A stretch of DNA of 64,000 nucleotides from Escherichia coli O157:H7 (GTDB lineage: Bacteria > Pseudomonadota > Gammaproteobacteria > Enterobacterales > Enterobacteriaceae). The stretch lies in assembly GCF_013167455.1 (NCBI RefSeq), contig NZ_CP038328.1; one strand, written 5' to 3'. A program made the position numbers and the translations under genes. The notes beneath the pieces were generated by a model. That model worked only from the letters and a program-made list of their open reading frames with translations. It searched no databases and was not told where the DNA came from. Numbering within the stretch: the stretch's first letter is position 1; each line of letters opens with the position of its first letter. Shown in pieces: positions 56,814 to 56,927 of this stretch.

Positions 56814-56890
56814 GCTGCCCCCTATCGTGCCTGCGTAAGCTGGATAAAACGCGCCAGCGTCGCATCCGGCATTTTTTTGCACCAACGCAA

Positions 56891-56921
56891 AAAGGCCATC
56901 CGTCAGGATGGCCTTTCGCTT
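56891..56921 (-). terminator. rrn operon terminator T1 (ggccatcctgacggatggcc + T-run on the minus strand)
   Basis: Hairpin immediately 3' of the 5S rRNA. Confidence 0.65.
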
Positions 56922-56927
56922 TATTTG

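Follow-up and report, generated by a model that had tools for sequence, protein, structure and literature searches.

The stretch of DNA analysed here, hereafter called the window, comprises 64,000 nucleotides of the Escherichia coli O157:H7 contig NZ_CP038328.1. The site of interest is the short gap between yjaB and the 5S rRNA gene of the ribosomal operon rrnE, two transcription units which converge on each other. It features the following elements:

55284 to 56213, minus strand: metA, the conserved neighbour on the opposite side of yjaB (open reading frame; K-12 and O157 annotation)
56370 to 56813, plus strand: yjaB, encoding a 147-aa GNAT acetyltransferase (open reading frame; Pfam Acetyltransf_10, Acetyltransf_7 and Acetyltransf_1)
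56809 to 56922, no strand, 114 bp: segment without a counterpart in K-12 (BLAST break points and alignment)
56814 to 56929, no strand: spacer between yjaB and the 5S rRNA, without yjaA (open reading frames, Rfam, K-12 alignment, BLAST with yjaA)
56839 to 56870, minus strand: single REP element GCCGGATGCGACGCTGGCGCGTTTTATCCAGC (REP consensus with 2 mismatches)
56891 to 56916, no strand: palindromic hairpin, putative terminator, AAAGGCCATCC-GTCA-GGATGGCCTTT (folding and terminator scan)
56930 to 57045, minus strand: 5S rRNA of rrnE (Rfam RF00001, 93 bits)
57140 to 60044, minus strand: 23S rRNA of rrnE (Rfam)
60241 to 60313, minus strand: tRNA-Glu of rrnE (Rfam)
60399 to 61940, minus strand: 16S rRNA of rrnE (Rfam)

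The gene order in the remainder of rrnE (57140 to 61940, minus strand) matches rrsE-gltV-rrlE-rrfE of K-12. An O157 record carries the yjaB annotation at the same site, and yjaB shares 95.4% nucleotide identity with its K-12 counterpart, its C-terminal residue being E in the window and A in K-12. As yjaB ends at 56813 and the 5S rRNA at 56930, or at 56928 under the 120-nt annotation used in K-12 (56928-57047), the gap measures 114-116 bp depending on the 5S annotation. Thus, the preliminary description of about 115 bp carrying a REP-like sequence and the rrn terminator was accurate, and its interval of 56814-56927 is exact under the K-12-style 5S; the spacer contains one REP and one GC-rich terminator hairpin. 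Within the 5S rRNA, two adjacent bases near the 5' end differ from K-12 rrfE (57035-57036, GGCGGCCTTAGCG vs GGCGGCAGTAGCG), a variant also present in E. coli HH45.

The REP element was located with the consensus GCCKGATGCGRCGY(4)RCGYCTTATCMGGC, an imperfect palindrome which occurs at three sites of the 64-kb window, with a chance expectation of 0. In the predicted fold, the element at 56839-56870 forms a hairpin. At a permissive threshold, Rfam returned a weak naRNA4/REP match for the spacer (E 0.008) and, beyond that, chance matches only. The element resembles known REPs in its two-mismatch fit to the consensus, its hairpin potential and its position between convergent transcription units, but it differs in being a single copy instead of a BIME pair. 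By its position it would belong to the 3' UTR of yjaB, and REPs in 3' UTRs commonly stabilise 3' ends. Elsewhere in the window, a further consensus site lies between malE and malF (19214-19245), and Rfam reports naRNA4, a REP325-type nucleoid-associated RNA, above the gathering score in the aceA-aceK spacer (51976-52053, minus strand).

The hairpin at 56891-56916 consists of 11 pairs, six of them GC, with folding energies of -22.3 and -21.3 kcal/mol, i.e., about -22 on either strand. It is followed by UUUUUGCG on the minus (rrn) strand and by CGCTTTATTT on the plus (yjaB) strand. A simple terminator scan flagged the hairpin on the plus strand and not on the rrn strand, because the longer stem used by the scan absorbs three U's of the U run; with the stem taken as GGCCAUCC/GGAUGGCC, the run on the rrn strand is UUUUUGCGUU. 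The hairpin region together with its 5S-proximal flank matches the T2 part of the K-12 rrnB tail at 91% identity over 65 nt, and this homology supports a function as terminator. The hairpin would accordingly be placed to end the rrnE transcript just after the 5S rRNA, and it could also end the convergent transcription of yjaB, since the palindrome is bordered by T-rich sequence at either end. In comparison to the K-12 rrnB tail, which features T1, a 5S relic and T2, the window has a single hairpin only, directly after the 5S rRNA, and the rrnE terminator of K-12 itself is formed by an unrelated hairpin (AAAAACCCCGGTCCATAAGGCCGGGGTTTTT).

The preliminary description had placed yjaA of K-12 between the 5S rRNA and yjaB, and the MG1655 record indeed shows rrfE-yjaA-yjaB-metA within the order rrsE-gltV-rrlE-rrfE-yjaA-yjaB-metA-aceBAK-arpA. 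According to both alignment and BLAST, homology to K-12 stops at 56808, within the last two codons of yjaB, and restarts at 56923, five bases before the end of the 5S rRNA. The 114 bp in between face 520 bp in K-12 (L001 6166-6685), which comprise the yjaB-yjaA spacer, yjaA and the K-12-specific rrnE terminator, so that K-12 is longer by 406 bp and yjaA is missing from the window. Local alignment of the window segment to the 520 bp of K-12 scored no better than shuffled sequences. A relic of yjaA in the spacer was considered and rejected, as 56816-56886 aligned in syntenic orientation to the K-12 segment and to the truncated yjaA of strain HH45 (see below) at shuffle level; the sole higher score (29, in inverted orientation) was a low-complexity match of an A-run and GCC. 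The two inserts show no significant similarity, and the difference is therefore a replacement and not a clean deletion. Searches of the whole 64-kb window with K-12 yjaA by tblastn (E<=10) and blastn (word size 7) gave nothing beyond chance. Between window and K-12, yjaB diverges by 2.8-4.8% at a regional mean of about 2.2%. This excess is too weak to be taken as a divergence peak around the indel, and no strong signature of an ancient balanced haplotype is seen.

The gene yjaA is a marker of Clermont phylotyping (triplex of 2000, quadruplex of 2013), and its negative state is found in the phylogroups B1, D, E, F and part of A. A strain of group E is expected to be positive for arpA, chuA and ArpAgpE and negative for yjaA, while TspE4.C2 may be positive or negative. 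The locus needed for this comparison is:

48005 to 50191, plus strand: arpA, annotated espL4 in O157 (in-silico PCR, annotation, Pfam)

The role of yjaA as a classic Clermont marker is documented by its place among the four quadruplex markers, whose primers (Table 1 of PMC4322292) were used for in-silico PCR with up to four mismatches allowed. At this tolerance, neither yjaA primer pair, yjaA.1b/yjaA.2b included, found a site in the 64-kb window; K-12 as control yielded the 211-bp yjaA amplicon at L001 6294-6504. The quadruplex arpA amplicon (AceK.f/ArpA1.r) is predicted with 400 bp at 50171-50570, with ArpA1.r matching exactly at 50171-50190 and AceK.f at 50551-50570 with two mismatches, at the third and sixth primer base counted from the 5' end. 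The group E-specific arpA amplicon (ArpAgpE.f/ArpAgpE.r) follows with 301 bp at 48390-48690 and exact sites for both primers, that of ArpAgpE.r being missing in K-12; rare group D strains carry the ArpAgpE allele as well by horizontal transfer (PMC6113867). Primers for chuA and TspE4.C2 have no sites in the 64-kb window, both loci being elsewhere on the chromosome. Hence, of the in-silico typing suggested in the preliminary description, the window provides yjaA-negative, arpA-positive and ArpAgpE-positive results, with the loci of chuA and TspE4.C2 falling outside. The complete O157:H7 genome SS17 was reported to possess chuA and to lack yjaA (PMC4321836), and from this report and the O157:H7 identity the source strain is likely chuA-positive. 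With regard to arpA itself, the protein (EspL4, a type III secretion effector in the O157:H7 annotation) features a Pfam ShET2-enterotoxin N-terminal domain and ankyrin repeats, and the gene overlaps the 3' end of aceK (50160-51896, minus strand) by about 30 bp.

The window thus fits the yjaA-negative state of the Clermont scheme: the locus is the one queried by the marker in K-12, and arpA and ArpAgpE are positive as expected for group E. Nevertheless, the scheme scores presence or absence only, whereas the negative allele in the window is a distinct sequence (REP and T2-type terminator) and not an empty site. Positions 56300-57100 (801 bp) are 100% identical to complete E. coli O157:H7 genomes, e.g., Z1615 (NZ_CP062744.1), where yjaB is followed by rrf with nothing in between and no difference from the window was detected over the 801 bp. 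Group E has O157:H7 as its best-known representative (PMC7865988). The earlier judgement that this is not a K-12-like background holds, as shown by this identity, the sor operon and the differing zur-proximal region. The sor (sorbose) operon (34254-39967, plus strand; regulator, SDR oxidoreductase, PTS IIA-IID and sorE) does not occur in K-12 and lies between rluF and pepE, which adjoin there. In the region beyond zur (window 1-4148), unlike in K-12, a DUF2713 gene is fused, dusA is truncated and prophage-like genes are present. The fusion joins yjbL and yjbM in one ORF of 318 aa (3192-4148), and the remnant of dusA (2726-2830) is followed by a PrtN-family activator, an exonuclease fragment and a methyltransferase pseudogene, which suggests that an element integrated in dusA. 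Furthermore, a SopA-family gene is intact at 12187-13767 (526 aa, minus strand), its K-12 counterpart being the pseudogene yjbI. The presence of arpA with the group E-specific amplicon permits a sharper call than "not K-12", and locus and arpA allele together identify the sequence as E. coli O157:H7/phylogroup E.

The gene yjaA was detected in 2,594 of the 5,426 complete E. coli genomes searched, and 52% are without it; accordingly, the absence of yjaA alone is not distinctive. All copies but one are at least 95% identical to K-12, and a few genomes feature two or three yjaA places. Sensitive blastn retrieved the same 2,594 genomes as megablast, so that no diverged paralogues of yjaA exist among them. 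A junction like that of the window (end of yjaB, REP, hairpin, 5S rRNA), defined by at least 80% coverage of a 181-bp probe, was found in 2,672 complete E. coli genomes, about 308 of which match at 99% identity or more. The counts of yjaA-positive genomes and of window-like junctions sum to less than the total of 5,426, and in sampled yjaA-positive genomes the best probe match was only the tail of another rrn operon, which is consistent with mutual exclusion of yjaA and the window-like junction.

A rare third allele occurs in the strains HH45 (L004 2432-2828) and HH97 (H112), where a truncated and frameshifted yjaA stands beside the canonical rrn terminator and not the K-12-type one. This yjaA is 89% identical to K-12 and lacks its 5' part; the yjaA.1b primer site is deleted, and such a strain would therefore type as yjaA-negative. 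No wider frequency is given for the allele, as the 592 genomes matching at 80% coverage or more are mostly ordinary yjaA-positive ones and only HH45 and HH97 cover the full query. The decay of yjaA in both strains demonstrates that deletion of yjaA does happen.

Beyond E. coli, the locus was scanned with YjaB in one genome per GTDB species, and 19 representatives with a contig extending past yjaB could be scored; E. albertii and several Klebsiella and Citrobacter representatives were left out, their contigs ending at or just after yjaB. In 16 of the 19, yjaA is lacking and yjaB lies beside the canonical hairpin and the 5S rRNA. These comprise three Escherichia species, Pseudocitrobacter, several Citrobacter, Klebsiella, Salmonella arizonae and diarizonae, Intestinirhabdus and Phytobacter massiliensis. 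The three Escherichia species feature a tail homologous to that of the window, REP included (93% identity in L006), while P. massiliensis and Intestinirhabdus have a minimal spacer without REP. The other three representatives, E. whittamii, Phytobacter diazotrophicus and Kosakonia sp. S29, carry yjaA in the same slot and orientation, and the YjaA proteins of the latter two share 65-66% amino acid identity with K-12. Phytobacter is thus polymorphic (L027 vs L030), with yjaA between yjaB and the 5S rRNA in P. diazotrophicus and the terminator within about 15 bp of yjaB in P. massiliensis. E. whittamii Sa2BVA5 (L007 3751-5035) diverges from K-12 by 0-0.4% in yjaA, about 2% in yjaB and 5-10% in aceB and metA. 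On this gradient, its yjaA region is a clear inter-species recombination tract, and consequently the yjaA allele moves between species.

Further traces of exchange were found at another ribosomal operon. The rrnG tail of the K-12 derivative MC4100 (L002 2945-3103, between kgtP and rrfG) contains a fossil of the last 20 or so codons of yjaB, which runs straight into half a REP, with the hairpin and the 5S rRNA behind it. An equivalent fossil lies beside kgtP in Citrobacter sp. NCU1 (L041 4001-4334) and is near-identical to the strain's own yjaB-rrnE tail. In both, the yjaB remnant covers the last 20-28 codons, and behind it come REP or spacer, then the canonical terminator and finally the 5S rRNA. 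This arrangement implies gene conversion among rrn tails that reaches into the neighbouring protein gene, with donors which had no yjaA, and the tails compared here show that such conversion acts to homogenise them.

With high confidence, the window is considered to contain the normal rrnE-yjaB junction of O157:H7 (phylogroup E), one of two long-standing spacer alleles which was inherited with the lineage and did not arise by recent deletion in O157. In the yjaA-less allele, convergent yjaB and rrnE are parted only by a REP and one palindromic intrinsic terminator of the T2 type of the rrnB tail. This hairpin is predicted to terminate rrn transcription directly downstream of the 5S rRNA, and its sequence suggests that it can stop yjaB from the other side. 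In the other allele, found in K-12, B2 and others, the same slot is filled by yjaA and a different terminator. Reshuffling of the two alleles probably proceeds by homologous recombination, for which the highly conserved rrn operon and yjaB-metA would serve as anchors. As the slot is without yjaA, the strain lacks the small stress protein YjaA, for which Pfam has no family, and this lack is the sole predicted consequence of the allele. A link of YjaA to peroxide, cadmium and acid stress is cited in PMC3050900.

As for the age of the alleles, comparison of the junctions shows the yjaA-less form to be older than the radiation of E. coli, and it probably also predates the split of Escherichia and Citrobacter. 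Since the yjaA-less state is usual in Citrobacter, Klebsiella, Salmonella and other Escherichia, the allele is an old alternative one and did not originate from a recent O157 deletion. In favour of early presence, yjaA occupies the same place in Kosakonia and Phytobacter, and the HH45 allele is decaying; early absence is favoured by the majority state and the rrnG fossils. The divergence of yjaB, being only mildly above the regional mean, is of no help with regard to this polarity. One reading, held tentatively and at close to an even chance, is that the yjaA marker, instead of a simple gene loss, is a cassette with two alleles at one fixed position, swapped within and between Escherichia species by rrnE-anchored homologous recombination, and that its yjaA-less allele is at least as old as the Escherichia-Citrobacter split. 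This age is indicated by the fossils of the yjaB 3' end, which gene conversion among rrn tails has brought to the rrnG tail. If this applies, rrn tails undergo a concerted evolution which extends into adjacent protein-coding genes.

A competing view, which is a real possibility without reaching an even chance, regards yjaA as ancestral in this slot of the Enterobacteriaceae and all yjaA-less junctions as old, repeated losses, with REPs settling later in the shortened spacer. The same position and orientation of yjaA in Kosakonia, P. diazotrophicus, E. whittamii and E. coli, at the stated protein identity across genera, agree with this view, and for Kosakonia and P. diazotrophicus the shared slot fits vertical descent with many losses. 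So do the decay of yjaA beside the canonical terminator in HH45 and the REP-less minimal spacers of P. massiliensis and Intestinirhabdus. However, yjaA is lacking in the majority of the species representatives that could be determined, the rrnG fossils of E. coli and Citrobacter stem from yjaA-less donors, and the near-identity of yjaA in E. whittamii and K-12 demonstrates that recombination can bring the gene in. A recent deletion of yjaA from a K-12-like ancestor, specific to O157:H7, is very improbable. K-12 does carry the longer sequence at the site, and partial deletions of yjaA exist in HH45 and HH97, but the window features no scar: in place of the 520 bp stand 114 unrelated bp, which include a REP of their own and another terminator. 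Moreover, 2,672 genomes from numerous lineages share the homologous junction, as do other Escherichia species and other genera, and a fossil of the yjaA-less tail resides at rrnG even in K-12. Although rRNA operons are classic break points, at which most draft contigs of the species scan end, a collapse or mis-join during assembly can be practically disregarded in view of the identical 801 bp in independent complete O157:H7 genomes and of the roughly 308 close matches mentioned above. It is just as hard to believe that yjaA has moved to another locus of this genome, as the preliminary description had allowed for: the few genomes with several yjaA places lend this no support, and as far as could be tested no such copy appeared, neither in the 64-kb window nor by sensitive blastn, which added no genome to the 2,594 carriers, nor among 52 evenly sampled yjaA match rows, none of which was labelled O157:H7 (about six expected if O157 genomes were carriers), nor in SS17.

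The yjaA-negative state as such is already known; it is ordinary for O157:H7 and phylogroup E and common to about half of the sequenced E. coli. The finding that the alleles replace one another, the yjaB remnant in the rrnG tail and the E. whittamii tract are minor additions, which may well have been described elsewhere, while a literature search on yjaA, yjaB and rrfE found no description of the locus structure. Replacement alleles, exchange of rrn tails, the rrnG fossil and the yjaA of E. whittamii illustrate why a marker beside an rRNA operon can be homoplasic, and the side observations could be of interest to students of concerted evolution in rrn operons. As a rarer variant, the yjaA-less E. 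coli strains MLI108K3 and BLR(DE3) possess a full rrnB-like tail (T1, 5S relic and T2) at rrnE, and rrn operon tails are mosaics exchanged among operons. For this tail type (REP-T2-5S relic-T1), a count of 1,968 was obtained and is not used as a frequency, because 84% of the query is also matched by a different rrn operon tail. The rrnE tail of MLI108K3 (L003 2015-2297) is 97.8% identical over 227 nt to T1-5S relic-T2 of K-12 rrnB, and a full rrnB-like rrnE tail also occurs in Salmonella diarizonae (L022) and Phytobacter diazotrophicus (L027).
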